DNA of 24,000 nt from assembly GCF_000718025.1 (NCBI RefSeq), contig NZ_JODS01000002.1:405972-429971 (forward strand), in the 5' to 3' direction. Of the stretch, positions 2,041-21,692 are shown piece by piece. The notes beneath the pieces are model-generated. The model did no database searches, had not been told where the DNA came from, and saw only the letters and a program-made list of their open reading frames with translations. Position 1 is the stretch's first letter. Each line of letters begins with the position of its first letter. This stretch comes from Kitasatospora purpeofusca. GTDB lineage: Bacteria > Actinomycetota > Actinomycetes > Streptomycetales > Streptomycetaceae. Both the position numbers and the translations under genes were made by a program.

Positions 2041-2169
2041 ATGAACGTCGAGCAGCGATGTGCCGCGGCCGGGTCCGCCCAAGCCGATCTCGCCATGCCG
2101 GCCACCCCGGCGCTGACCGTCCGGCGGTACATCGACCACGCGCTCATCTGCAGCGCCTGTTGTCGCTGA
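2041..2169 (+). CDS. Candidate 42-codon Cys-containing sORF (MNVEQRCAAAGSAQADLAMPATPALTVRRYIDHALICSACCR)
   Basis: ATG 2041 is preceded by GGAGGA (2028-2033, 7-nt spacer). GC3 is about 85% in this frame and lower in the competing frame 3 over the same span. It ends GCC TGT TGT CGC TGA, nucleotide-identical to the end of the sORF at 4648-4692. No homology-based support. Confidence 0.45.
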   Translation: MNVEQRCAAAGSAQADLAMPATPALTVRRYIDHALICSACCR

Positions 2170-2533: not shown

Positions 2534-3451
2534 ATGAGCGACACCATGTCCTCCACCTCCACGGCCACTCTTCCTCTCCCCTCCGCGACCCCGCACCTGC
2601 GCGCGGTCCGCTCCGTCCCGTCCCCCGCCGACCGCCGGCACGGGGGTCCCGCGCCGCAGCGCCCGGCCGCCGGCCAGCCCGGCTCCGTGCCGCAGGGGCC
2701 GTCCCAGTCCGGCTTCGGGCAGCCCGGCTTCGGCGCGTCCGGTTTCGCCCCGTCGGGGTCGGCCCGGGTCGCCGCCGCCGCGGTCCCGTCCGTCCCGCAG
2801 ATCGTTCCGGCGCTCCCGCCGCAGGCGCTGCTCGCGGCGCTGCCCGAGGGTGCGGCCGTGGTCGCGGCGCTGCCCCAGGGCTCGCTGCCGCAGGCCCTGC
2901 TGGCCCAGTACGGTGCTCAGTTCGGCGCCTCGGCGGGGCAGCCGATGGTCGGTTACCTGGTGCTGGTCCCGGCCGAGGGCGGAGTCGCCGCCGCGCCGGG
3001 TGCCGGGCAGCAGGGCTTCCCGACCGCCTCGATCCCGGCCCCGCAGGCCGGTCCGGTCGCCGCCGTCGGGGCCTCCGTCCTCGGTGCGCCCGGTACCGGT
3101 GGCCTCGGGGTCCCCGGAGTCGGGACCGCCGCCGCGGCCGGCACGCGACCGGTGCGGCCCGTCGGCCGGGGGATCACGGTCGACACCGAGCGCCGGAACG
3201 CTTACGTGGACGGCCAGTTGCTCGACCTGACGTACCTGGAGTTCGAGCTGCTCGCCCACCTGACGGAGCACCCGCAGCGGGTGCACACCCGCGACCACCT
3301 GGTCTCCGCCGTCTGGGGCTACGGCCACGTCGGCGACGGCCGCACGGTGGACGTGCACGTGGCCAGGCTTCGCCGCAAGCTCGGAGCGGCCTACCGCGAC
3401 AGCATCGTGACGGTGCGTCGGGTCGGTTACAAGTACACGCCGGTGGCCTGA
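2534..3451 (+). CDS. Orphan OmpR/PhoB-type winged-helix DNA-binding protein (no receiver domain; long disordered N-terminus)
   Basis: 305 aa. C-terminal ...LDLTYLEFELLAHLTEHPQRVHTRDHLVSAVWGYGHVGDGRTVDVHVARLRRKLG...IVTVRRVGYKY matches the Trans_reg_C effector domain. The first ~210 aa are Pro/Ala/Gly/Gln-rich low complexity. Strong GC3. The start could instead be ATG 2546. Confidence 0.8.
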   Translation: MSDTMSSTSTATLPLPSATPHLRAVRSVPSPADRRHGGPAPQRPAAGQPGSVPQGPSQSGFGQPGFGASGFAPSGSARVAAAAVPSVPQIVPALPPQALLAALPEGAAVVAALPQGSLPQALLAQYGAQFGASAGQPMVGYLVLVPAEGGVAAAPGAGQQGFPTASIPAPQAGPVAAVGASVLGAPGTGGLGVPGVGTAAAAGTRPVRPVGRGITVDTERRNAYVDGQLLDLTYLEFELLAHLTEHPQRVHTRDHLVSAVWGYGHVGDGRTVDVHVARLRRKLGAAYRDSIVTVRRVGYKYTPVA

Positions 3452-3632: not shown

Positions 3633-4415
3633 TCAGATCCGCTGGTCCGGCGGCAGCAGCAGGACCGCGAGCGCGGCGGCGCAGGTCCTGGCGTGGTCCA
3701 GGAACCAGTCCAGCCGCTCGTCGGTGAGGTGGACGGGCGTGGAGCGGACGGCGAGGGCGAACCTGGCCTGGCCGGCGCCGTCCAGCACCGGTACGGCGAC
3801 CGTGCGCACCCCGGTCTCCGACTCGCCGTCGTTCAGCGCGTGACCGGCCGTCCGGACCTTCGCCAGCTCCTCCGCCAGGCGCTCCGGCGCGGTGATGGTC
3901 CGGTCGGTGAACGGTGCCAGCGGGCCGAGCGTCGCCACGCCCGCGTCGCCGGGGCGGGGCCAGGCCAGCAGGACCTTGCCGAGCGCGGTCGAGTGGAGCG
4001 GTCGGCGCAGTCCGAGTCCGGTGTCCGGCCGGACCGAGGCGCCGACCAGTATCACCGCGTGCGGACCGCTGCGGATCGCGAGATCGGCGGCGGCGCCGGT
4101 GCGGCGGGACAGCAGGTCGAGCTCGGGCGCCGCCAGGTGCAGCCCGCGCTGGTGGAAGGTGAGTTGGCCGAGCTCGGCGACCGCCGGGCCGAGCCGGTAG
4201 CGGGCCGTGTGCTCGTCCTGCTCCAGGAAGGCGGCGCTGACCAGGGTGCGGGCCAGCCGGTGCGCCGTGGACACGGACAGGCCCATCCGGCGGGCCAGGT
4301 CCGAGGCGCTCAGGTCGGGGCCGTTGTCGTGGAAGCAGTGCAGCAGTCCGAGGGCCCGCTGAACGGCCTGGGCGCCGGCCGGCGGGCTCTGGGCGGCGGT
4401 GACGGCCTCGGCCAT
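3633..4415 (-). CDS. IclR family transcriptional regulator
   Basis: 260 aa. N-terminal wHTH ...VQRALGLLHCFHDNGPDLSASDLARRMGLSVSTAHRLARTL... and a C-terminal IclR effector domain (...LHSTALGKVLLA..., ...GHALNDGESETGVRTVAVPV...). Divergent from the sulfonate operon. Confidence 0.9.
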   Translation of the reverse strand: MAEAVTAAQSPPAGAQAVQRALGLLHCFHDNGPDLSASDLARRMGLSVSTAHRLARTLVSAAFLEQDEHTARYRLGPAVAELGQLTFHQRGLHLAAPELDLLSRRTGAAADLAIRSGPHAVILVGASVRPDTGLGLRRPLHSTALGKVLLAWPRPGDAGVATLGPLAPFTDRTITAPERLAEELAKVRTAGHALNDGESETGVRTVAVPVLDGAGQARFALAVRSTPVHLTDERLDWFLDHARTCAAALAVLLLPPDQRI

Positions 4416-4498
4416 GGCATCTCTCGTTCTGTCCGTGGCTCCGGTCGTTCACCGGAGTCGCTCCCAGACTATGGCAGCGTGTGCTGCGGGAATGTGTC

Positions 4499-4523
4499 AA
4501 CGGCGTTGCAAAAGGATGCCGTT
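4499..4523. promoter_or_regulatory. Inverted repeat AACGGC-N13-GCCGTT in the lowest-GC patch of the divergent intergenic region (candidate operator)
   Basis: Perfect 6-bp arms at 4499-4504 and 4518-4523 inside the A/T-enriched stretch tgtcaacggcgttgcaaaaggatgccgttcatgaacaagcaatcccatgatg. The binding protein is unknown; the adjacent IclR is the obvious candidate. Confidence 0.3.
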
Positions 4524-4647
4524 CATGAACAAGCAATCCCATGATGTGGCAAACCCTTGCTCCTGGCTCGCCCGCCGTGGAACGCTCGGCGCAGCGCACC
4601 GGGCAGCCCCGTCCGGCGGCGCCCGGACCGCGGGAAGGAGCAGTGCC

Positions 4648-4692
4648 GTGACGACCCACCGGTGCCCCTCCTCCCGCGCCTGTTGTCGCTGA
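4648..4692 (+). CDS. Candidate 14-codon Cys-rich leader sORF (MTTHRCPSSRACCR) of the sulfonate operon
   Basis: GTG 4648 with GGAAGGAG (4633-4640) 7 nt upstream. 3 Cys in 14 codons. Ends GCC TGT TGT CGC TGA. A C-rich, G-poor tract of about 145 nt follows, then the first operon gene. Confidence 0.55.
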   Translation: MTTHRCPSSRACCR

Positions 4693-4836: not shown

Positions 4837-5910
4837 GTGCCCAGTTCCGCCCGCAGTTCCGTCGAGGAGCCCTCGTCGACCGCCGCCGTTGCCCCGGGGC
4901 CGGTGCCCGACACCCTCTGGTTCACCCGCTGCCCGGTGCCCACCGCGACCGGCATCGCGGCCGACCGGGGCTGGCTGGGACGGGAGTTCGCCCCCGACGG
5001 CATCGCCGTCCGCTCGCTCCAGGACGTGCCTCCGGAGGTCGCTTCCGACCACCACTACACCCACGCCCTGACCGGGCTGTTCCGCGAGGGCGGCAATGTG
5101 CCGGCGCTCTGGGCCCGTTCGCGCGGCGAGCGGACCAGGCTGGTCGGGCTCACCTGGATCGAGGAGCGCCAGGTCGTCCTGGTCCGCTCCGGCAGCGGGG
5201 TCACCGAGCCCGGGCAGCTGCGCGGGCTGCGGCTCGCCGTCCCACACCATGGGATAGCCATCGACTTCTGGCGCGCGATGGCGCTGGCCGGCCTGCACGG
5301 AGCACTCTCGCTCGCGGGTCTCACGCCGGCGGACGTCGAACTGGTGGACGTGCCGGCCGCGCCGGGCGAAGGGCAGTGGGAGGCGGAGCTGACCGCGCTG
5401 CGGGACGGCGTCGTGGACGCGGTCTACGTGAAGGGCGCGCTCGCCGTCGAGGCGGCCCGACGGATCGGGGCGGAGGTCGCCGTCGACCTGGACGCCGTCC
5501 CGGACCGCCGGGCACGGGTGAACAACGGCACGCCCCGGCCGATCACCGTGCGCCAGGAACTGCTCGACGAGCACCCGGACCTGGTGGCCCGCTTCCTCGC
5601 CGTGCTGCTGGAGGCCGCCGACTGGGCCGCCGGGCAGCCGGCCGAGGTCGCTCGGATCCTGGGCGCCGAGACCGGAGCGGGGGAGGAGGGCGTCGCCGGG
5701 GCGTACGCCGCGGGCGGTCACCGCACCCTGCACCTCGATCTCTCCGAGGACCGCCTCGCCCTGCTGGAGCAGCAGGAGCGCTTCCTCGACCGGCACGGGT
5801 TCCTGGCCGGACCGGTCGACGTCCGGGCCTGGGCCGACCCGGAGCCGCTCCGCGCCGCCCGCGCGCTGCTCGCCGCCCGCCGCGCCGAGGGGCGGACGCA
5901 CGGTGGCTGA
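4837..5910 (+). CDS. DszB-like / NMT1-THI5-type substrate-binding-fold protein without signal peptide (possible sulfinate desulfinase-like enzyme)
   Basis: ...DTLWFTRCPVPTATGIAADRGWL... aligns, from my memory of it, with the N-terminus of Rhodococcus DszB (...DTLTYSNCPVPNALLTASESGFL...), including the nucleophile Cys, and with the ...R.GG..P... segment. No signal peptide or lipobox. GTG 4837 is preferred (AGAGGA upstream; GC3 deteriorates upstream of it); the track start 4759 is the alternative. Confidence 0.75.
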   Translation: MPSSARSSVEEPSSTAAVAPGPVPDTLWFTRCPVPTATGIAADRGWLGREFAPDGIAVRSLQDVPPEVASDHHYTHALTGLFREGGNVPALWARSRGERTRLVGLTWIEERQVVLVRSGSGVTEPGQLRGLRLAVPHHGIAIDFWRAMALAGLHGALSLAGLTPADVELVDVPAAPGEGQWEAELTALRDGVVDAVYVKGALAVEAARRIGAEVAVDLDAVPDRRARVNNGTPRPITVRQELLDEHPDLVARFLAVLLEAADWAAGQPAEVARILGAETGAGEEGVAGAYAAGGHRTLHLDLSEDRLALLEQQERFLDRHGFLAGPVDVRAWADPEPLRAARALLAARRAEGRTHGG

Positions 5911-6023
5911 CGGGTAGCGGCCGACACTTCCCGCAAGCCGTCGGTCCGCCGCCCGCGACCCCCGCCCCGTACCCCGCCAGGCACCCCCCCGCCCGCACCC
6001 CTCAGACCTCAGGAGCCGACCCC

Positions 6024-7046
6024 GTGAATCCCTCCCGCCCCCTCCTCGCCGCCACCGCCCTGCTCGCCACCACCCTCCTCGCCGCCTGCGGCTCCTCCGC
6101 CGACGGGGGAGGGACCGCCGCCGGCAAGGGCGACAAGGCCGAGGCAGTGCTCCGGCTGCCCGACCCCGGGAACAACGGCTTCCTCGCCCTGGGCAAGAAG
6201 GACGGCTCGCTCGACCGCGCCCTCGCGGCGGTCCACGCCAAGGTCGCCTGGACCGGCAGCGCCGGCCCCTTCGCGCCCGCCGCCCAGGCCCTCTCCGCCG
6301 ACCAGCTCGACGTCGCCCAGGGCTCGATCACCTCCGCCGTCGCCGCGCTCGCCCAGAAGCCCGGCTTCAAGCTGTTCGCCCAGACCGCCCCCGACGGCGT
6401 CGGCGAAGGCATCCTGGTGAAGAACGGCTCGCCCATCAAGACCGTGCAGGACCTCGTGGGCCACAAGGTCGCCGTGAGCCAGGGCGGCACCAGCGAGTAC
6501 CTGCTGCTCAAGGCGCTGGAGAAGAACGGCATCCCGGCGGACAAGGTCGAGCGGGTCTATCTCCGCGCCGACCAGACGGCGGGCGTCTTCAACTCCGGCC
6601 AGGTGGACGCCTGGGCCACCTGGAACACCTTCTCCACCCCGTCGATCGCCAACTCCGGCGCGCACTTCCTGGTCAACGGCAAGGAGGTCGGCTCCGACAA
6701 CTACGCCGTCTGGGCCGTCCGCAACGGCTTCGCCGACAAGCACCCCGAGGTGGTGAAGGCCTTCTACGCCTATCTGCGCGAGAACGGCCTCAAGGAGAAG
6801 GCCGACCCGGCCGCCTACCTCAACGTCTTCACCGACTCCGGGCCGACCGCCGTCACCCCCGCCGAGAAGGACGTCGCCGTCGAGGTGACCCGCCAGGGCG
6901 CCGCCGCCGACGCCATCGGCGAGGCCGACATCGCCCGCTTCGGCACCGTCGCCGCGTTCTTCGCGGAGCAGAAGGTCACCAAGCAGCCGGTCGACGTCAA
7001 GCCCTATCTGATCGACCTCGGGGCGCTCGGCGGTGGCACCAAGTGA
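6024..7046 (+). CDS. ssuA: Aliphatic sulfonate ABC transporter substrate-binding lipoprotein (SsuA family)
   Basis: 340 aa from GTG 6024 (AGGAG 8 nt upstream). Signal peptide with lipobox LAAC. NMT1/SsuA-like body (...HKVAVSQGGTSEYLLLKALEKNGI...VDAWATWN...). Adjacent to permease and ATPase genes. The 829-aa track ORF is an upstream read-through of this frame. Confidence 0.85.
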   Translation: MNPSRPLLAATALLATTLLAACGSSADGGGTAAGKGDKAEAVLRLPDPGNNGFLALGKKDGSLDRALAAVHAKVAWTGSAGPFAPAAQALSADQLDVAQGSITSAVAALAQKPGFKLFAQTAPDGVGEGILVKNGSPIKTVQDLVGHKVAVSQGGTSEYLLLKALEKNGIPADKVERVYLRADQTAGVFNSGQVDAWATWNTFSTPSIANSGAHFLVNGKEVGSDNYAVWAVRNGFADKHPEVVKAFYAYLRENGLKEKADPAAYLNVFTDSGPTAVTPAEKDVAVEVTRQGAAADAIGEADIARFGTVAAFFAEQKVTKQPVDVKPYLIDLGALGGGTK

Positions 7047-7933
7047 CCACCGCCACCCGCCCGTCGGGGGACCGGGCCACCGGCCCGGAGACCGACCCGG
7101 AGACCGAGGCCGCCCGTGCCGCCGGACTGGTCGAACCGCGCACCCGCCGCCGGACCGCCCGCCCCCGCGCCCTCGCGCTGACCCTGCGCGCCCTCGGCCC
7201 GCTGGCCCTGCTCGGCGGCTGGGCCCTCGCCTCCGCCACCGGCGCGCTGACCCAGGACGTACTGGCCTCGCCCGCCCAGGTCGCCGAGGCGGTCGGCGAA
7301 CTGTGGGGCAACGGCCAACTCGCCGACGCCCTCGGCGTCTCGCTCACCCGGGCCGGCCTCGGCCTGCTGATCGGCGCCGGCACCGGCCTGGTGCTGGGCG
7401 TGGTGACCGGCTTCTTCCGCCTCGGCGAGGAACTCCTCGACTCGGCGGTCCAGGTCCTGCGCACCGTCCCCTTCCTCGCCCTCGTCCCGCTGTTCATGGT
7501 CTGGTTCGGCATCACCGAGACCGCGAAGGTCGCGCTGATCGGCGTCGCCACCAGCTTCCCCATGTACGTGTCGACCTCCGGCGGGGTCCGCAACACCGAC
7601 CCCAAGCTGATCGAGGCCATGCGCAGCTTCGGCCTCGGGCGCTGGGCGATCGTGCGCACCGTCGTCCTGCCCGGCGCCCTGCCCGCCCTGCTCTCCGGCC
7701 TGCGACTGTCCATGACGCTCAGCGTGATCGCCCTGATCGCCGCCGAGGAGATCAACTCCACCGAGGGCATCGGCTACTTGATGGCCCAGGCGCAGAACTA
7801 CTCCCGCACCGACATCCTCGCCGTCTGCATCCTGATCTACGGGGTCCTGGGACTCACCGCCGACGGCATCGTCCGCCTGCTGGAGCGGGTCCTGATGCCC
7901 TGGCGCAGGGCCGCCCAGGGAGGCACCCGATGA
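7043..7933 (+). CDS. ssuC: Sulfonate/nitrate/taurine-type ABC transporter permease (SsuC family)
   Basis: 296 aa, multiple hydrophobic segments, EAA-loop-like ...IEAMRSFGLGRWAIVRTVVLPGALP.... GTGA overlap with ssuA and ATGA overlap with the next gene. Confidence 0.9.
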   Translation: MTTATRPSGDRATGPETDPETEAARAAGLVEPRTRRRTARPRALALTLRALGPLALLGGWALASATGALTQDVLASPAQVAEAVGELWGNGQLADALGVSLTRAGLGLLIGAGTGLVLGVVTGFFRLGEELLDSAVQVLRTVPFLALVPLFMVWFGITETAKVALIGVATSFPMYVSTSGGVRNTDPKLIEAMRSFGLGRWAIVRTVVLPGALPALLSGLRLSMTLSVIALIAAEEINSTEGIGYLMAQAQNYSRTDILAVCILIYGVLGLTADGIVRLLERVLMPWRRAAQGGTR

Positions 7934-8718
7934 CCACCACCCCCGCCCCCAACTTCACCGAAGCCGAAGCCGAAGCCGAAGCCGAAGCCGGGACCGGAGC
8001 CGAAGCCGGGACCGGGACCGGGACCACCCCGGCCGTCCATCTGCGCGGCCTGCGTCGGGTGTTCGGCACCCGGGCCGTGCTCGACGGCGTCGATCTCTCC
8101 ATCGCCCGCGGCGAGTTCGTCGCACTGCTCGGCGCCAGCGGCACCGGCAAGACCACCCTGCTGCGGATCCTCGGCGAGCTCGACCGGGCCGACGGCGGAA
8201 CGGTCCTCGTCCCGCCGGTGCGGACGGTGGTCTTCCAGGAGCCGCGGCTGGTCCCCTCGAAGCGGGTGCTGGCCAATGTCACCGTCGGCCTGCCGCGCGG
8301 TGCCGCCACCCGGGAGACCGGACTGAGGGCGCTCGCCGAGGTCGGCCTCGACCGGCACGCCGACGCCTGGCCGGTCACCCTCTCCGGCGGCGAGGCACAG
8401 CGTGCCGCACTCGCCCGGGCGCTGGTCCGGGCGCCCCAACTGCTGCTGCTGGACGAGCCGTTCGCCGCCCTGGACGCGCTCACCCGGCTGCGTATGCAGG
8501 ACCTCGTGGGCGATCTGGTCCGCCGTCACCGGCCGGCCGTGCTGCTGGTCACCCACGACGTGGACGAGGCGGTGCGGCTCGCCGACCGGGTCGCCGTGCT
8601 CCGGGACGGCAAGCTGGTGCGCGACCAGCGCGTGGGTGTCGCCCGCCCGCGCGACCCGGCCGACCCCGCCTTCGCCGACCTGCGCCGTCTGCTGCTCGCC
8701 GACCTCGGCGTCCACTGA
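7930..8718 (+). CDS. ssuB: Sulfonate-type ABC transporter ATP-binding protein (SsuB family)
   Basis: 262 aa. Walker A GASGTGKTT, signature LSGGEAQR, Walker B LLLLDEPF, H-loop VTHD. The N-terminus carries an (EA)5/(GT)n low-complexity repeat. Confidence 0.9.
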   Translation: MTTTPAPNFTEAEAEAEAEAGTGAEAGTGTGTTPAVHLRGLRRVFGTRAVLDGVDLSIARGEFVALLGASGTGKTTLLRILGELDRADGGTVLVPPVRTVVFQEPRLVPSKRVLANVTVGLPRGAATRETGLRALAEVGLDRHADAWPVTLSGGEAQRAALARALVRAPQLLLLDEPFAALDALTRLRMQDLVGDLVRRHRPAVLLVTHDVDEAVRLADRVAVLRDGKLVRDQRVGVARPRDPADPAFADLRRLLLADLGVH

Positions 8719-8812
8719 CACCGCCCGCCACCCTCGCACCGCCCCGCGCGAAACCGCCCCGCCTCCCCCTCGTCCCGCCCCACGCCCCACCCGCACCACA
8801 GGAGCTGATCCC

Positions 8813-9748
8813 ATGGCCATCACCCTCGGCGTCCACGCCAGCAATCCCTCCCTCTACTACCTCTCCCGACTCGACTACCTGGCCGAGGAGTTGGCACCGC
8901 TCGGGGAGACCGGCGAGTTCCACCGCTACACCGACGGGACCCGCACCGGCGAGCTGCTGGCCGAGGGCGTGATCGACTTCGGCGGCACGGGCTCCACCCC
9001 GCCGGTGACCGCCCAGGCCGCCGGCCACGACCTGGTCTACGCTGCGGTCTCGGCGCCCCGGCCCGACCACGGCGCGCTGCTGGTGAGCGCCGACGGACCG
9101 GTGAAGTCGGTCGCGGACCTCAAGGGCGGCACCGTCGTCCTGGCCATCGGCTCCTGGCAGACCCACCTGCTCGCCAAGGCCCTGCACGCGGAGGGCCTGT
9201 CCTACGCGACCGATGTCACGGCCGTCCGCCCGGCGGCGGGGGAGGACCAGGCGCGGCGGCTGCGCGAGGGCGCGATCGCCGGCTGGATCGCCCAGGGCGC
9301 CGAACTGGCGGCCGCCCGGCGCGAGGGCGGGTTCCGCGAGCTGGTCCGCACCGGCGACGTCATCACCGACCGCTCGGTGTTCTTCACCCGGCGCGGCTTC
9401 GCCGTCGACCGGCCCGAGGTGGTCGCGGCGATCGTCACCGCCCTGCGCCGCGCGGACGCCTGGGTGGCCGCCAACCTGTCCGAGGCGGCCGCGATCGCCG
9501 CGGCGGACCTCGGCGGCAGCGCCGAGGACTGGCGGACCGCCCTGGCCGGGCTGCCGTGGCGGCTGGAGCCGGCGAGCGCCGGGTTCGTCGCCGAGCAGCA
9601 GGAGGCGGCCGACATCTTCCACCGGGTCGGCTTCGTCGACCGGCAGGTGGTCGTCGCCGACGCCCGTCTGCCCGCCCTGGAGGCCCCGGTGGCCGCCGCG
9701 GCGACCGCGGACCCGACGGCCGCCGCCGCCGACACCCGGGCGGTCTGA
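8813..9748 (+). CDS. Second SsuA/NMT1-like substrate-binding-fold protein lacking a signal peptide
   Basis: 311 aa from ATG 8813 (AGGAG about 8 nt upstream). Starts MAITLGVHASNPSLYYL... with no hydrophobic leader. Periplasmic-binding-protein type 2 pattern (...DFGGTGSTPP..., ...LKGGTVVLAIGSWQTHLLAKAL...). Confidence 0.75.
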   Translation: MAITLGVHASNPSLYYLSRLDYLAEELAPLGETGEFHRYTDGTRTGELLAEGVIDFGGTGSTPPVTAQAAGHDLVYAAVSAPRPDHGALLVSADGPVKSVADLKGGTVVLAIGSWQTHLLAKALHAEGLSYATDVTAVRPAAGEDQARRLREGAIAGWIAQGAELAAARREGGFRELVRTGDVITDRSVFFTRRGFAVDRPEVVAAIVTALRRADAWVAANLSEAAAIAAADLGGSAEDWRTALAGLPWRLEPASAGFVAEQQEAADIFHRVGFVDRQVVVADARLPALEAPVAAAATADPTAAAADTRAV

Positions 9749-9751
9749 CCG

Positions 9752-10828
9752 ATGGCCTCCGAATTCCTCTGGTACATCATCCCGCGCGAGGGCCACTACC
9801 CCTGGGAGCCGTCCGGACGCCGCCCGGTCGACCTCCGCTACCTCCAGCAACTCGCCGGCAGCGTCGAGCGGTTGGGCTACACCGGCGCGCTGCTGGCGAC
9901 CGACCTGCACGACGTGTGGGACCTCGGCAACGCGCTCGCCGCCGCCACCACCCCGGCGTTCAAGCCGCTGCTCGCCGTGCACCCCGGGCTGATCTCGCCC
10001 ACCCTGCTGGCCAAGATGGCGCTCAGCTTCGACCACCTGCACGGCGGCCGGCTGCGCTTCAACGTGGTCAACGGCTCCACCGAGCAGCTGCGCGAGTACG
10101 GCCTGCACGTCGAGCACGACGACCGCTACCGCCTCAGCGCCGAGTACTGGTCGATCGTCAAGCGCCTCACCGCCGGCGAGGTCTTCGACCACAAGGGGGA
10201 GTTCTACGACCTCCGGAACGCCGGGGCGAGCCTGCGCGAGCTCACCCCGGTCCAGCCGGGCGGCATCCCGCTCTGGTTCGGCGGCAGTTCGGCGGCCGGG
10301 ATCGAGATGGCCGCCGAGCACGTGGACGTGTACCTCACCTGGGGCGAACCGCCGCAGCAGCTCAAGGAGAAGCTCGACCTGGTCCGGGAGCGCGCCGCCG
10401 CGCACGGACGGACCCTGCGGATCGGCCTGCGGCTGCACCTGATCGTCCGCGACACCGAGGACGAGGCCTGGGCCGCCGCCGACCGGCTCCTCGACGTGAC
10501 CAGCGAGGCCACCTACGCCCGCCAGCTGGGCGGGGTGCGCGGCGAGGACGGCGTCGGCTGGCAGCGGCAGTTCCGCCAGCACGGCGGCAAGGTGCCGGCG
10601 CGGGCCCGGGAGCTGGAGGTCCACCCGAACATGTGGCCCGGCATGAGCCTGTTCCGCCCCGGCCCCGGCACCGCCGTGGTCGGATCGACGGCCCAGGTGG
10701 TCGAGCGGCTCCAGGAGTTCGAGTCGCTCGGGGTGGACACCTTCATCCTCTCCGGCAATCCACTGCTGGAGGAGGCCCACCGGGTCGCCGAGACGGTGCT
10801 ACCGGCGCTGGGCGTCCGACGCCGGTAG
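9752..10828 (+). CDS. ssuD: FMNH2-dependent alkanesulfonate monooxygenase (LLM class, SsuD)
   Basis: 358 aa, collinear with E. coli SsuD as I recall it: ...RPVD..YLQQ.A....RLGYTG.L..., ...VD.YLTWGEPP....EK...VR..AAAHGR..R.G.RLH.IVR.T..EAW.AA..L..., ...LSG.P.LEEA.RV.E...P.L. Confidence 0.9.
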   Translation: MASEFLWYIIPREGHYPWEPSGRRPVDLRYLQQLAGSVERLGYTGALLATDLHDVWDLGNALAAATTPAFKPLLAVHPGLISPTLLAKMALSFDHLHGGRLRFNVVNGSTEQLREYGLHVEHDDRYRLSAEYWSIVKRLTAGEVFDHKGEFYDLRNAGASLRELTPVQPGGIPLWFGGSSAAGIEMAAEHVDVYLTWGEPPQQLKEKLDLVRERAAAHGRTLRIGLRLHLIVRDTEDEAWAAADRLLDVTSEATYARQLGGVRGEDGVGWQRQFRQHGGKVPARARELEVHPNMWPGMSLFRPGPGTAVVGSTAQVVERLQEFESLGVDTFILSGNPLLEEAHRVAETVLPALGVRRR

Positions 10829-11062: not shown

Positions 11063-12055
11063 TCAGCGGCTGAGCGCGTCGATCTCCGCGAGCTCCTCGT
11101 CCGTCAGCGGACCGCCCGCCAGCGCGTCGAGGTTCTGGTCCAGCTGCCGGACGCTGCTGGCCCCGATGATCACCGACACCACCCGCTCGTCCCGCAGGAC
11201 CCAGCTCAGCGCCAGCTGCGCCAGGGTCTGCCCGCGCCGCTCGGCCACCTTGTTCAGCGCCCGCAGCTGGTCCAGCTTCGCCCCGGTGAGCGCCTCCTCG
11301 CGGAGGAACTTGCCGACCGACATCCGCGACCCGCTCGGCACCTCGCCGGAGAGGTAGCGGTCCGTCAGCAGCCCCTGGGCGAGCGGCGAGAAGGCGATCA
11401 GGCTGGTCCGGGTGTCGGCGACCGCGTCCAGCACGCCCTCGTCCTCGACGTAGCGGTTGAGGATCGAGTAGGAGCACTGGTTCATCAGCACCGGCGTGCC
11501 CAGGTCGCGCAGGATCGCCACGGCCTCCCGGTGCTGCTCCGCCGGGTAGTTGGAGATGCCCGCGTAGAGCGCCTTCCCGGACCGGACGGCGGAGGCCAGC
11601 GCGCCCATGGTCTCCTCGAGCGGGGTGTTCGCGTCGTAGCGGTGCGAGTAGAACACGTCCACGTAGTCGAGGCCCATTCGGCCCAGCGACTGGTCCAGGC
11701 TGGCCAGCAGGTACTTGCGGCTGCCGCCGTCGCCGTACGGCCCGGGCCACATGTCGTAGCCGGCCTTGGAGGCGATGAACAGCTCGTCCCGGTACGGGCG
11801 GAAGTCCTGCGCGAACAGGTGGCCGAAGTTGCGCTCGGCGCTGCCGTACGGCGGACCGTAGTTGTTGGCCAGGTCGAAGTGGGTGATGCCCCGGTCGAAG
11901 GCCCGGCGCAGCACCGCCCGCTGGACGTCCAGCGGTTGGGTGTCGCCGAAGTTGTGCCACAGGCCCAGGGAGACGGCCGGGAGCAGCACACCGCTGCGGC
12001 CGGCCCGGCGGTAGGTCATCGACGCATAGCGGTCATCCGCAGCGAGGTAGCTCAT
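11063..12055 (-). CDS. Aldo/keto reductase, YghZ/Gpr-like (L-glyceraldehyde-3-phosphate reductase family)
   Basis: 330 aa from ATG 12055. MSYLAADDRYASMTYRRAGRSGVLLPAVSLGLWHNFG...ITHFDLANNYGPPYGSAE.NFG...YRDELFIASKAGYDMWPGPYGDGGSRKYLLASLDQSL.RMGL.YVD.FYSHR... is near-collinear with E. coli YghZ. The 113-codon upstream extension in the track is Arg/Gly/Pro junk. Confidence 0.9.
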   Translation of the reverse strand: MSYLAADDRYASMTYRRAGRSGVLLPAVSLGLWHNFGDTQPLDVQRAVLRRAFDRGITHFDLANNYGPPYGSAERNFGHLFAQDFRPYRDELFIASKAGYDMWPGPYGDGGSRKYLLASLDQSLGRMGLDYVDVFYSHRYDANTPLEETMGALASAVRSGKALYAGISNYPAEQHREAVAILRDLGTPVLMNQCSYSILNRYVEDEGVLDAVADTRTSLIAFSPLAQGLLTDRYLSGEVPSGSRMSVGKFLREEALTGAKLDQLRALNKVAERRGQTLAQLALSWVLRDERVVSVIIGASSVRQLDQNLDALAGGPLTDEELAEIDALSR

Positions 12056-12142
12056 GCCGGACATCCTGCCAGGTGGGGACCGGCCGGCCGAGGGACGGGC
12101 CGCGGCCGCCGGGAGCCGCACCCGGGGTGCCGGGGACGGCCC

Positions 12143-12172
12143 TTGCCCGGAGCGCGGGCCGGTGCCTATGCT
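12143..12172 (+). promoter_or_regulatory. Candidate housekeeping-sigma (HrdB-type) promoter, TTGCCC-N18-TATGCT
   Basis: -35 TTGCCC 12143-12148 and -10 TATGCT 12167-12172 (TANNNT). This would start a transcript about 40 nt upstream of the sORF at 12221. Sequence match only. Confidence 0.35.
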
Positions 12173-12220
12173 CGCGGGAGATCGTGGATCGTGCGCGTGC
12201 GAGCGGAGGGGGCCGGAGCG

Positions 12221-12277
12221 ATGTGCGTCCGTGCCGTCGACCTGCGCTGTTGTCGCCCCCGCAGCGCCGCGTGCTGA
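12221..12277 (+). CDS. Candidate 18-codon Cys-rich leader sORF (MCVRAVDLRCCRPRSAAC)
   Basis: ATG 12221 with GGAGGGGG upstream. 4 Cys in 18 codons, including CGC TGT TGT CGC. Lies 140 nt upstream of an LLM monooxygenase gene. Confidence 0.5.
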   Translation: MCVRAVDLRCCRPRSAAC

Positions 12278-12417
12278 ACGCCGGTTCCCGAACTCCCGAC
12301 CGGCCCCGCGCGATCCGACCCTTCGGTGCTGCCCCTGCGTGAGCGGCCGATCGCGGGGCGCTCCGCCGGGCCGCCGCGCCGGCCGTCCGCCCACCGAGCG
12401 CCCCCAAGGAGACCGCT

Positions 12418-13449
12418 GTGCGGTTCATCGTCTCGTCCCTCGCGTCCAATGTGCCCGATCCCGTCACGGGCGTGCGGCGCACTCCGCACGAGAAGGTGCA
12501 CAACATCATCGACCAGGCCGTCACCGCCGAGCGTCTCGGCTTCGACGGCTACGGAGTGGGGGAGCGGCACGGCGAGCCGTTCCTGTCCCCGGCACCGGCC
12601 GTGCTGCTGAGCGCCGTCGCCGCCCGCACCTCGGTGATCCGGCTGTTCACCACCGTCACCGTGCTGTCCGTCGCGGATCCGGTCCGGGCGGCGGAGGAGT
12701 ACGCCCTCGTCGACCAGATCTCCGGCGGGCGCCTCGAGTTGATCATCGGCAAGGGCAACGATCCGCGCCTCTTCGAGCAGTTCGGCCTGGCGGAGGAACG
12801 GCAGTGGGAGGCGCTCGCCGAGAACTACGGTCTGCTGCGCCGGCTCTGGCGGGAGGAGAAGGTGACCTGGGAGGGCAGCACCCGGCCGCCGTTGCACGCG
12901 GTCACCACCTGGCCGCGGCCCCACCAGGAGCCGATCCCGGTCTGGCACGGCAGCGCGACCAGTACGCTCTCCACCGACCTGGCCGCCCGCTACGGCGATC
13001 CCCTGTTCTCGGCCAACACCTCGCACCCGATGGAGCAGTACAAGGCGCTGGTGGACCACTACCGGGAGCGCTGGGAGCACTACGGCCGCGCCCCGGAGGA
13101 CGCCCGGGTCGGCACGGGCTTCGGCGGACTCTTCGTCGCCCGGCGTTCGCAGGACGCGTTCGCCGGCTTCCGCCCGTACTGGGAGGCGATGGCGAAGTGG
13201 GCGGCGGGGCGGCGGGGCGGCTCGACGTTCACCTCGCTGGAGGACGCCGTCGGGCGCGGCTCCCTGCTGGTCGGCAGTGTGGAGCAGGTGATCGAGAAGA
13301 TCCACCGCTATCACGAGGCCTTCGGCAACGAGGTGGTGGGCGTCGGCGTGGACCTGCTCACCGAGGGGGCCCAGCGCGAGCAGCTGGAGCTGTTCGCGGG
13401 CGAGGTCGCGCCGGTGGTCCGGCGCGAACTGCCGTCCCGGCGGCCCTGA
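12418..13449 (+). CDS. LLM class flavin-dependent oxidoreductase (luciferase-like monooxygenase)
   Basis: 343 aa. GTG 12418 with AAGGAG 6 nt upstream. ...AERLGFDGYGVGERHG.PFLSPAP.VLL.AVAARTS.IRL.T.VTVLS..DPVR.AEEYA.VD..SGGRLEL..GKGN... is the typical LLM N-terminal TIM-barrel signature. Confidence 0.85.
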   Translation: MRFIVSSLASNVPDPVTGVRRTPHEKVHNIIDQAVTAERLGFDGYGVGERHGEPFLSPAPAVLLSAVAARTSVIRLFTTVTVLSVADPVRAAEEYALVDQISGGRLELIIGKGNDPRLFEQFGLAEERQWEALAENYGLLRRLWREEKVTWEGSTRPPLHAVTTWPRPHQEPIPVWHGSATSTLSTDLAARYGDPLFSANTSHPMEQYKALVDHYRERWEHYGRAPEDARVGTGFGGLFVARRSQDAFAGFRPYWEAMAKWAAGRRGGSTFTSLEDAVGRGSLLVGSVEQVIEKIHRYHEAFGNEVVGVGVDLLTEGAQREQLELFAGEVAPVVRRELPSRRP

Positions 13450-20214: not shown

Positions 20215-20395
20215 GACGCCGAGTCCCGTCCACCCGCCGGCCGGCAATCGAGCACCACAGCGGACGGGAGCGGGGGACCCAGGTCAGTGCCCGGCCGCGC
20301 GCCCAGAGCGTGCGAGTCGCGGCTAGGGGTGAAGCCGCTCTCCGGACGGCCGGGCAACCTCGCGCCCGAACCCGACAGCTCACCTCGTAGGCGTC
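20215..20395 (+). promoter_or_regulatory. Cyclic-di-AMP riboswitch (ydaO/yuaA motif)
   Basis: Conserved cores are present in order: AGCGGGGGACCCA (20269-20281), GGGGUGAAGCC (from 20326), and CCCGAACCCGACAGCUCACCUCGUAGGCGUC (20365-20395). Compare the B. subtilis ydaO cores GCGGGGGACCCA, GGGGUGAAUCC and CCCGAACCCGUCAGCUAACCUCGUAAGCGU. P1 can form between GACGC 20215-20219 and GCGUC 20391-20395. A hairpin CCCGUCC/GGACGGG (20225-31 / 20262-68) precedes the first core, as in ydaO. Confidence 0.85.
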
Positions 20396-20411
20396 GCAGA
20401 GGACCACTGCC

Positions 20412-21692
20412 ATGCCCACTGCCTCCCCGCAGCCTGCGCCGAACCGGCGCGCCCTCGGCCGCCACCCCGCGCCCCGCCACGCCCGTCCCTCCCACCGGGG
20501 CCGCAGCGCCGCCCTCGCCGCCACCGGGGCGCTCGCCGTCACCGGTGCCGGACTGCTCGGCCTGCCGGCCGTGACCGGCGCCCAGGCCGCCGCCCTGCCG
20601 ACCGTCACCCAGGACAAGCTCGCCCCGGCCGCCATGGTCGCGGGCAAGGCGGCGACCGGCTCGCTCACCCTGCACTCCTCGTCCTGCTTCACCGCGAAGA
20701 CCGTCGGCGTCGGCATCCGCGACGCGGCCGGGCACAACCTCGACTTCCCCGGGAACAAGAGCAACGTCCAGGTCTGCCCGGCCGGCCTGACGGTCACCAC
20801 CGGCGCGCGCACCCTGGCCGCCGGCACCTACACCCAGTTCGGCTTCTGGCAGGACAGCACCGGCGGCTGGCACAACCTGCCCTCCCGCGAGCTCGTCGTC
20901 TCCGCCGCCACCCCGACGCCGACCCCGACGCCGACGCCCACCCCCACGCCGACCCCCACGCCGACCCCGACGCCGACCACCCCCACCACGGGTGCCCCGG
21001 TCGCGGGCAAGACGCTCACCTGGTCCGACGACTTCAACAGCCTCGCCCTGGGTTCCCGCTGGACCGCCGACCGGAGCAGCTCCTACCACTACGGCGACCA
21101 CAACCCGAACGACAACAAGCTCGACTGGCTGAACAAGAACAACGTCGCCGTCTCCGGCGGCGTCGCCACCTTCACCGCCCGGCCGGGCACGCACACGCTG
21201 GAGAACGGCAAGCAGGCCTGGGACACCGGCCTGCTCACCACCGAGTACTCCAGCGAGGGCTTCAAGGTGAAGACCGGGGACTACATCGAGACCCGGGTCA
21301 AGCTCCCGGCCGGCACCGGCGCCTGGCCGGCGCTGTGGACGTGGAACAGCACCAGCGGCACCCACGGGGAGATCGACTCCTTCGAGTACCACAGCGACAA
21401 CCCGAACCTGCTGGAGCTGACCAACCACATCAACCCGGGCCACCTGTACGTCACCGACGCCAAGGCGATCGCCAAGGACAGCTGGGTCACCGTCGGCACC
21501 CACTACGGCGCCACCTCGGTCGACTGGTACATCAACGGCACCAAGGTCTTCTCCGACGGCAAGGGCGTCGGCGCCGGCTGGACGGCCTACCCGATCCTCA
21601 ACCTGTCCCTGAGCGCGGGGAACTACCACCCCGCGCCCTCGGGCACCACGCCGATCACCTTCGCGGCGGACTACGTCCGGGTCTACCGGTAG
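20412..21692 (+). CDS. Secreted glycoside hydrolase family 16 protein (unknown N-terminal domain, Thr-Pro linker, GH16 catalytic domain)
   Basis: 426 aa. Arg-rich N-region plus hydrophobic signal ending AQA. A domain of about 105 aa of unknown family. (TP)n linker at nt 20910-20984. GH16 hallmarks WPALW and the catalytic E-I-D-S-F-E (GEIDSFEY), with a concanavalin-like C-terminus ...ITFAADYVRVYR. Confidence 0.85.
   Translation: MPTASPQPAPNRRALGRHPAPRHARPSHRGRSAALAATGALAVTGAGLLGLPAVTGAQAAALPTVTQDKLAPAAMVAGKAATGSLTLHSSSCFTAKTVGVGIRDAAGHNLDFPGNKSNVQVCPAGLTVTTGARTLAAGTYTQFGFWQDSTGGWHNLPSRELVVSAATPTPTPTPTPTPTPTPTPTPTPTTPTTGAPVAGKTLTWSDDFNSLALGSRWTADRSSSYHYGDHNPNDNKLDWLNKNNVAVSGGVATFTARPGTHTLENGKQAWDTGLLTTEYSSEGFKVKTGDYIETRVKLPAGTGAWPALWTWNSTSGTHGEIDSFEYHSDNPNLLELTNHINPGHLYVTDAKAIAKDSWVTVGTHYGATSVDWYINGTKVFSDGKGVGAGWTAYPILNLSLSAGNYHPAPSGTTPITFAADYVRVYR

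Follow-up and report, generated by a model that had tools for sequence, protein, structure and literature searches.

Polycysteine short open reading frames (ORFs) of Mycobacterium smegmatis are cysteine-responsive attenuators, as start-codon, recoding and compensatory mutants have established; when Cys-tRNA runs short, they lift the attenuation (Canestrari et al. 2020, bioRxiv 10.1101/834739). In the Ms5788A mechanism the Cys tract pairs with the downstream Shine-Dalgarno sequence, which according to the authors is not established for other loci, and the ermCL and cat leader peptides are named as analogues (10.1101/834739). At the ilvB1 upstream ORF (uORF) of Mycobacterium tuberculosis, stalling lets an anti-terminator form: the ribosome covers one RNA segment once it has reached the stop codon, but leaves it free if it stalls upstream (PMC13236596). 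Here we analysed a 24,000-nucleotide (nt) stretch of Kitasatospora DNA from contig NZ_JODS01000002.1 (the window, numbered from its first letter), in which a short Cys-rich ORF at 12221-12277 precedes a gene for an uncharacterised luciferase-like monooxygenase (LLM). Our analysis suggests that this ORF is probably a leader peptide that acts in cis and signals to the LLM gene how much charged tRNA-Cys is available. Judged by its sequence, the locus appears to be a known kind of system, a Cys-rich leader peptide, in a new family led by a Shine-Dalgarno sequence. A literature search for Cys leader peptides in Streptomyces or Kitasatospora (Streptomycetaceae) found no report.

The mycobacterial comparators were Ms5788A, Ms4527A, Rv2334A and others, together with the NCBIfam models NF042933, NF042936 and NF042934. 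The Kitasatospora locus resembles them in that its short ORF is unannotated and has two or more Cys codons in a row, that such loci recur within one genome (three in this window) and that ribosome pausing on Cys codons is the proposed means of sensing. The mycobacterial ORFs are the first cistron before sulfur or cysteine genes; the ORF here is likewise a first cistron, but the gene downstream of it is the uncharacterised LLM. It ends 140 nt before the LLM gene on the same strand with no terminator between them, and the two presumably share a continuous transcript.

We searched the LLM protein against one genome per species and kept 80 loci (L001-L080), of which 35 were of Kitasatospora type (75-95% protein identity) with readable upstream DNA. 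The LLM of the window is 95% identical to the Kitasatospora purpeofusca LLM. The same short-ORF family precedes the LLM orthologue at 32 of the 35 Kitasatospora-type loci, 99-382 nt ahead of it, with lengths of 18-37 codons and the consensus M(A/S/C)VR..., a variable stretch and RCC(C)(C)R(R)(H)RSTxR. Conservation this far beyond chance indicates that the short ORF is not a chance ORF. An exact look-up of ten family peptides in a collection of 15 billion proteins found none of them, and on this ground we regard the ORF as unannotated; Pfam gave no match for the peptides either. At one further locus, L026, the LLM orthologue is preceded by an unrelated Cys leader (...LTVRRHIDLLRICGSCCR), which matches NF042936, the Ms4527A family of Cys-rich leader peptides (E = 3.4e-6), and NF042934. 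This leader and another short ORF in the window (2095-2169) match the mycobacterial model NF042936 directly, both below its curated cut-off. It is difficult to account for two unrelated families of Cys leaders before one enzyme without invoking control linked to cysteine.

The 5' end of the module is conserved as well. The promoter TTGCCC-N18-TATGCT, the Shine-Dalgarno sequence GGAGGGGG ahead of ATG 12221 and the 18-codon ORF with four Cys codons, all described in the initial annotation, were found in place (Table 1). The promoter was not called by a scan for the E. coli-type consensus and was accepted because of its phylogenetic footprint: TTGCC(C)-N17/18-TA(T/A/G)(G/C)(C/A)T stands at the same place in 32 of 33 leaders, with the near variant TTGCAC ... 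TATCCT in L032, and in the -10 element (TANNNT) the T-A---T positions are constant and those in the middle are variable. From the end of the -10 hexamer to ATG 12221 the distance is 48 nt. Transcription probably starts near 12179-12180, giving a leader of ~41 nt by this in silico start. A purine-rich block like GGAGGGGG is present in the 33 leaders, mostly 5-8 nt before the start codon, a few variants being poorer in G. The conserved Shine-Dalgarno sequence and the ~41-nt leader set this family apart from the leaderless mycobacterial ORFs. The module keeps its own promoter and travels with the LLM gene where the upstream gene differs (L010, L034-L036).

The Cys tract of the short ORF is conserved too. 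Between two and four consecutive Cys codons are present in 32 of the 33 leaders, the remaining locus having three scattered ones, and only the two consecutive codons among the four Cys codons of the window ORF are conserved. Within consecutive-Cys tracts TGT outnumbers TGC by 76 to 2, against 35 TGC to 5 TGT in the genes of the window, and where a Cys codon stands alone in one of the window's three short ORFs it is TGC. The tract never starts before codon 10 and is otherwise free in its upstream position (codons 10-27), and its distance from the stop codon is 7-9 codons in 30 of the 33 leaders; the mycobacterial tracts, by contrast, are C-terminal. The fixed tract, the rare codon and the stop distance appear to be signatures of a sensor rather than of a protein. 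The initial annotation had assigned the core CGCTGTTGTCGC to all three Cys short ORFs of the window. This was incorrect: the exact 12-mer CGCTGTTGTCGC occurs in the window only at 12245, and the short ORFs at 2095-2169 and 4648-4692 have just TGT TGT CGC in common with it, as GCC TGT TGT CGC TGA. The broader proposal of a leader peptide is supported by the 32 of 35 loci that carry the ORF, by the conserved promoter and Shine-Dalgarno sequence, the rare TGT tract and the fixed stop distance, and by the second leader family at L026.

Table 1. Positions of the leader elements and of neighbouring genes in the window.
Feature	Position	Strand	Description
Promoter	12143-12172	+	-35 TTGCCC 12143-12148, 18-nt spacer, -10 TATGCT 12167-12172
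5' leader arm	12178-12195	+	core GGATCGTGCG 12186-12195
Shine-Dalgarno of short ORF, GGAGGGGG	12205-12212	+	8 nt before ATG 12221
Putative leader-peptide ORF MCVRAVDLRCCRPRSAAC	12221-12277	+	18 codons, 4 Cys
Candidate regulatory Cys tract TGT TGT	12248-12253	+	codons 10-11 of short ORF
S1 GCAGCGCCG	12261-12269	+	within 3' end of short ORF, 7 nt after Cys tract
Helix A	12304-12315 with 12349-12358	+	repeat tool: perfect 8-nt core 12303-12310 / 12352-12359, imperfect longer pairing
a' CGCGCGATCC	12307-12316	+	linker segment complementary to 5' arm; I1 of repeat tool
S2 CGGTGCTGC	12324-12332	+	part of conserved non-coding motif CCGGTGCYGCCC; complementary to S1
Helix B	12355-12363 with 12396-12404	+	perfect 9-bp inverted repeat, 100% complementary
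LLM initiation region	12406-12426	+	Shine-Dalgarno AAGGAG 12406-12411; segment 12417-12426 complementary to 5' arm
LLM gene, proposed regulated gene	12418-13449	+	343 amino acids; GTG start 12418
IclR regulator	3633-4415	-	frame-specific GC plots and Pfam/NCBIfam scans
ssu-like operon	~4840-10828	+	three SsuA-family binding proteins, permease, ATPase, SsuD-like monooxygenase
SsuD-like alkanesulfonate monooxygenase	9752-10828	+	last-named member of ssu-like operon
Aldo/keto reductase, divergent	11063-12055	-	GC plots and Pfam/NCBIfam scans
TetR regulator			listed after LLM in gene order

Several pairings in the leader RNA are conserved in register. We aligned the leaders as motif-anchored modules because a MAFFT alignment of the 33 spacers was unreliable (indels of 0-250 nt, tandem repeats), and relied on conserved-register tests because pairing by the G-rich arms is so unspecific. 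An RNAduplex comparison of the 5' arm with the LLM initiation region and with the linker was tried and set aside, its shuffle z scores lying mostly near 0 (means about -0.4 and -0.9). The motif CCGGTGCYGCCC, which contains segment S2, occurs in ~27 of the 33 leaders, 19-137 nt past the stop codon. RNAalifold predicts that S2 forms a helix with S1, which lies within the last part of the short ORF; over 30 loci the share of paired cells is 89.3%, compared with 21-56% in shifted registers. An A-U pair is exchanged for G-C in L030, L031 and L036. Of 27 loci in which the gap between the last Cys codon and S1 was measured, 26 have a gap of 7, 10 or 13 nt, and L004 has one of 25 nt. S1 therefore has a defined place relative to the ribosome: at the leading edge of one stalled on the tract and wholly inside one sitting at the stop codon. 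This geometry fits the logic of masking by a ribosome at the stop codon, and the regulatory codons specify the relevant amino acid, as in the ilvB1, trp, his and leu leaders. An alternative partner for S2 was also considered, but the S2:S3 hairpin (CCGGUGC with GCGCCGG) has an RNAalifold consensus of only -3 kcal/mol and shows no covariation; we keep it as a weak possibility, and this weakly conserved alternative is a difference from ilvB1-type leaders. A further difference, from trp and his as well as ilvB1, is that a scan of 11900-12600 found no terminator-like site, and so no intrinsic terminator with a U-tract; the terminator tool was run on this window and not on the orthologues, and no U-tract is visible by eye in the 33 leader sequences. 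Unlike that of Ms5788A, the Cys tract lacks complementarity to the Shine-Dalgarno sequence downstream; between the short-ORF tail and the LLM initiation region, the column-pair scan described next returned matches of 5 base pairs (bp) only.

An unbiased column-pair scan of 26 leaders gave a single outlier, GGAUCGUGUG (12186-12195) with CGUGCGGUUC (12417-12426), which would join the 5' arm to the LLM start region. The run is 10 bp long, against a maximum of 6 in the parallel-strand control, and 92% of its cells pair; by pair count, 89.3% of cells pair, compared with 35-48% in shifted registers. The one-sided changes are mostly compatible with pairing (U to C opposite G, G to A opposite U), and a C in the 5' arm opposite the first base of the start codon is found only in loci that start with GUG. 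The block that holds the 5' arm directly follows the -10 element in nearly all leaders. A 7-nt duplication (GATCGTG) ahead of the core of the arm is specific to this window and L001. There, GATCGTG GATCGTG (12180-12193) accompanies a Thr-to-Ile change (ACC to ATC) at LLM codon 4, and by a hand count the two together may lengthen the possible pairing with the start region to ~17/18 positions.

The start region can also fold locally. A hairpin of GACCGC with GCGGTT (12411-12416 with 12420-12425), with the GTG start codon in or beside its loop, is predicted by RNAalifold at -7.4 kcal/mol in the window and -8.1 kcal/mol for the consensus, and ACCGC in its non-coding 5' half is nearly invariant. 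The 5' arm has a further possible partner in the linker segment a'. Arm and linker change together by clade: GGAUC in the arm is matched by GAUCC in the linker, and in L028 GGGAAUC is matched by GAUUCCC. The linker has GGTCC in 6 of 6 loci with an arm of GGACC and in 2 of 18 with an arm of GGATC. The a' complement is missing in the L008 clade.

These elements can be combined into a tentative mechanism. The conserved promoter would give an mRNA with the Shine-Dalgarno-led short ORF as its first cistron. In the off state, the local hairpin (12411-12425), pairing with the extreme 5' end of the mRNA, or both would sequester the LLM start codon. A shortage of Cys-tRNA would stall a ribosome with UGU in its A site and its leading edge just short of S1, which would be left free to stay paired with S2; the stalled ribosome would also block those behind it. 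The resulting rearrangement of the leader would relieve attenuation of the LLM gene. Translation of the short ORF, stalling at the tract and the identity of the on-state fold are what we infer from these comparisons. As in the ermCL and cat systems, a stalled leader ribosome would remodel the mRNA and free a downstream initiation region, but the signal here would be a lack of Cys-tRNA rather than a drug together with a nascent-peptide arrest motif. We prefer, tentatively and with some doubt, an output that acts on initiation of LLM translation. A fuller design is speculative and as a whole unlikely: the 5' end of the mRNA closes onto the LLM start and the ribosome-gated S1:S2 helix opens it, the module belongs to a multi-locus cysteine 'ribulon' of Shine-Dalgarno-led UGU-UGU-CGC leaders in Kitasatospora and relatives, and the near-Cys-free CE1758/2I7G-like LLM family is a new class of organosulfur-scavenging enzymes.

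Several observations weigh against this interpretation. The S1:S2 helix has A.C mismatches in seven loci, and both it and the pairing of the 5' arm with the start region represent conserved complementarity and not compensatory change. S1 and part of the start-region arm are coding too, which is an alternative cause of their invariance. The pairing with the 5' arm shows no double-sided change at all, as would follow from its 3' arm being mostly coding and nearly invariant, and of 27 loci, equilibrium folding produces this helix in only 3. A DNA operator, or an effect of the initial transcribed region, could also account for the conserved 5' arm. Unusual stability could not be used as an argument, since the minimum free energy of the leader is -122 kcal/mol compared with a shuffle mean of -129 (z = +1.3); the leader folds no better than shuffled sequence. 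We folded the 33 leaders by partition function (ViennaRNA) with the ribosome masked on the Cys tract or on the stop codon and saw no systematic change in how accessible the Shine-Dalgarno sequence and start codon of the LLM gene were. The mean unpaired probability of the Shine-Dalgarno sequence was 0.37, 0.38 and 0.36 in the three ribosome states, and forcing S1:S2 in the folds had no consistent effect. The orthologues in L016 and L025 have no leader at all, and the peptide matches no curated leader-peptide model: searches with a 28-residue in-frame extension of it and three orthologous peptides gave no match at E <= 10 to NF042933, NF042936 or NF042934, so that it fits none of the three models of its mycobacterial counterparts. 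Fold predictions for RNAs of 250-500 nt at 75% G+C are weak evidence either way. In L016 and L025 (Kitasatospora, 77-78% identity) the intergenic region from the aldo/keto reductase to the LLM gene is short (~110 nt in L025), and the leader appears to have been lost or never gained there.

The same UGU-UGU stalling sensor might instead have a transcriptional output, with the C-rich spacer as a Rho loading site and S1:S2 deciding termination, which we consider somewhat unlikely. Rho-dependent leader-peptide controls such as Escherichia coli tnaC and Salmonella mgtL/mgtA consist of a short ORF followed by a long C-rich untranslated spacer, and this layout is repeated here. The stalled ribosome of tnaC sits on the stop codon and thereby right on the Rho loading site, whereas the candidate stall site here is eight codons upstream of the stop; a ribosome stalled there does not cover the spacer, and the route by which it would block Rho is not evident. 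The composition of the spacer argues for Rho. C exceeds G in the spacers of all 33 leaders (C/G 1.29-1.87, mean 1.6), and the best 78-nt spacer windows have a mean C/G of 2.0 against a background 95th percentile of 1.67, although the value of 1.43-1.5 for the spacer of the window is only at about its 90th percentile. The long-spacer orthologues (L028, L004, L002, L020, L023) carry tandem C-rich repeats with periods of roughly 8-17 nt, and spacer length varies freely (99-382 nt), as would hardly be expected if a precise long-range fold were needed. The lack of an intrinsic terminator in 11900-12600 and the ssu leader of the same window, with the same layout of a Cys short ORF and a C-rich spacer of ~145 nt, point in the same direction. 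The reference list of PMC13236596 includes work on the interplay of Rho and uORFs in M. tuberculosis; the one mycobacterial case that has been dissected is nevertheless translational attenuation and not termination. Control might also lie outside the peptide, with a transcription factor binding between -35 and +25 and the short ORF encoding a small basic Cys-rich peptide with its own function, or being translated without consequence. Conservation of ~60 nt around the promoter and early leader beyond what a promoter needs fits this explanation, as do a similar promoter-like block, CCCTTGC...GCTCG, before the ssu and L026 leaders and the conserved N-terminus (MAVRTVT) and tail (RRHRSTxR) of the peptide. 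We consider it improbable: peptide length (18-37 residues) and Cys number vary while the tract, rare codon and stop distance are fixed, and two unrelated families of Cys short ORFs hold the same position before the same enzyme. Promoter control and attenuation can in any case coexist.

The initial annotation had placed the switch in two mutually exclusive spacer helices, A and B, of which B, near the Shine-Dalgarno sequence, would set LLM translation. Both are present, at or within one base of the positions given there, helix B ending 1 nt ahead of AAGGAG; they are two among 12 inverted-repeat pairs that the repeat tool found in 271 nt. When the 140-nt spacer was shuffled 1000 times with its dinucleotides preserved, a perfect stem of at least 9 bp arose in 18% of cases, two stems of at least 8 bp in 14% and a mutually exclusive pair of 8-bp stems in 3.1%. 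From these frequencies each helix alone is unremarkable and the exclusive pair only mildly unusual, in keeping with the caveat already attached to the proposal that GC helices arise by chance. Covariation was assessed in alignment A3 of nine short-spacer leaders and divided the two helices. Helix A, whose outer pairs are kept through two-sided changes in some leaders, has 64.2% of cells paired compared with 59.1% in shuffles and a covariation score of 0.192 compared with 0.128; because this score was reached by 12 of 500 shuffles under a control known to be liberal, its support is marginal. Its 5' arm may have looked meaningful because it overlaps the conserved segment a'. Helix B shows no covariation (73.8% of cells paired, 71.5% in shuffles), occurs as a GCGCUC/GAGCGC version in some clades only, has uncompensated changes in L022, L024 and L015 and is without a counterpart in the L008 clade. 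RNAalifold predicts neither helix in the consensus. Helix B covers neither the Shine-Dalgarno sequence nor the start codon, and neither helix touches the short ORF, which leaves a paused ribosome with no direct way to choose between them. Folding with and without a stalled ribosome, as the initial annotation had envisaged, left the predicted accessibility of the LLM Shine-Dalgarno sequence unchanged in the window and most of the 33 leaders. Collectively, these results make control by the A/B pair very unlikely.

What the leader would control is an enzyme with an unusual composition. The LLM matches Pfam Bac_luciferase (E = 2.9e-73), its best NCBIfam match is TIGR04036, the CE1758 family (270 bits, below the cut-off of 479), and the closest solved structure is 2I7G, of uncharacterised function. 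The protein has no Cys and two Met in 343 residues. The frequency of Cys per 100 residues is 0.017 in 35 close orthologues and 0.033 in 43 distant ones, which include Micromonospora, Actinoplanes, Frankia, Cohnella and Paenibacillus, and Met is at ~0.43 per 100 residues in both groups; most family members have no Cys and 0-3 Met in ~340 residues. The ssu proteins contain 0.3-1.4% sulfur amino acids (permease 2.4%), and most other genes of the window ~1-3%. A low content of sulfur amino acids is a hallmark of proteins induced by sulfur starvation. That the LLM family is almost cysteine-free supports a link of the LLM to sulfur starvation. The assignment of the enzyme to the sulfur response, made in the initial annotation, was upheld in part: the near-Cys-free family and the ssu-like neighbour agree with it, but the LLM does not belong to the SsuD or SfnG family (TIGR03565, 41.8 bits against a cut-off of 518; TIGR04021, 48.5 against 383).

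If the leader-peptide interpretation is correct, cysteine-responsive leader-peptide control would reach from mycobacteria to Streptomycetaceae, in a Shine-Dalgarno-led form, and a leader-peptide family missed by current annotation models would be added. Sulfur starvation, to which the near-total lack of cysteine in the family points as well, would become a physiological handle on an uncharacterised LLM family that extends from Paenibacillus to Frankia. The leader would be a compact and mutable test bed for two questions: whether leader peptides of actinobacteria have their output through translation initiation or Rho, and what favours the rare UGU in the sensor. We see the main worth of the finding in what it indicates about the function of the Cys-free LLM family and in the access that this leader offers to the question of translational or Rho-dependent output.

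The distant orthologues have neighbourhoods of their own. The LLM gene lies beside LLM paralogues, three in Micromonospora (L040) and Actinoplanes (L064) and at least one in Frankia (L051), and no short ORF with consecutive Cys (CC) was found within 450 nt upstream of the LLM gene at these three loci. A major facilitator superfamily (MFS) transporter follows the Actinoplanes orthologue, and the Cohnella orthologue adjoins an Fe-S/CCG-domain protein and a thioredoxin-like protein. In the window, which has a G+C content of 74%, the leader occupies a 360-nt intergenic region between the aldo/keto reductase and LLM genes, and 1.6 kb upstream of the LLM gene is the ssuABC/ssuD-like operon, which has a Cys short ORF too. 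Searched against Rfam, 12050-12500 gave nothing, even at E <= 10, but one 12-bit chance match.

The window contains further Cys short ORFs. The one before the ssu-like operon (4648-4692; MTTHRCPSSRACCR) is led by a Shine-Dalgarno sequence, ends GCC TGT TGT CGC TGA and is followed by a very C-rich untranslated spacer of ~145 nt (4693 to ~4836), a layout like that found before the LLM gene. The promoter-like block of this ssu leader, CCCTTGCTCC...GCCGTGGAACGCTCG (~4564-4590), is seen again ahead of the L026 Cys leader. The third short ORF (2095-2169; MPATPALTVRRYIDHALICSACCR) matches NF042936 with E = 3.6e-4, is homologous to the leader before the L026 LLM orthologue and lies ~365 nt upstream of a gene for an OmpR-type winged-helix regulator (2534-3451). 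Between the IclR gene and the ssu leader there is a possible leaderless short ORF (4479-4544; MCCGNVSTALQKDAVHEQAIP) that starts GTG TGC TGC, its GTG standing 6 nt after a -10-like hexamer, GACTAT; it would resemble the leaderless poly-Cys type of mycobacteria.

The spacer between the short ORF and the LLM gene is a hot spot of tandem C-rich repeats with periods of roughly 8-17 nt (L002, L004, L005, L009, L020, L023, L028). In L028, for example, CCCTCCCGAGT is repeated several times. The repeats expand the spacer from ~100 to 380 nt and leave the flanking conserved blocks undisturbed. Elsewhere in the window, a cyclic di-AMP (c-di-AMP; ydaO/yuaA) riboswitch at 20243-20408, the sole Rfam match of the window at gathering thresholds (47.5 bits, gathering score 38), lies directly upstream of a gene at 20412-21692 with a weak GH16-like domain.

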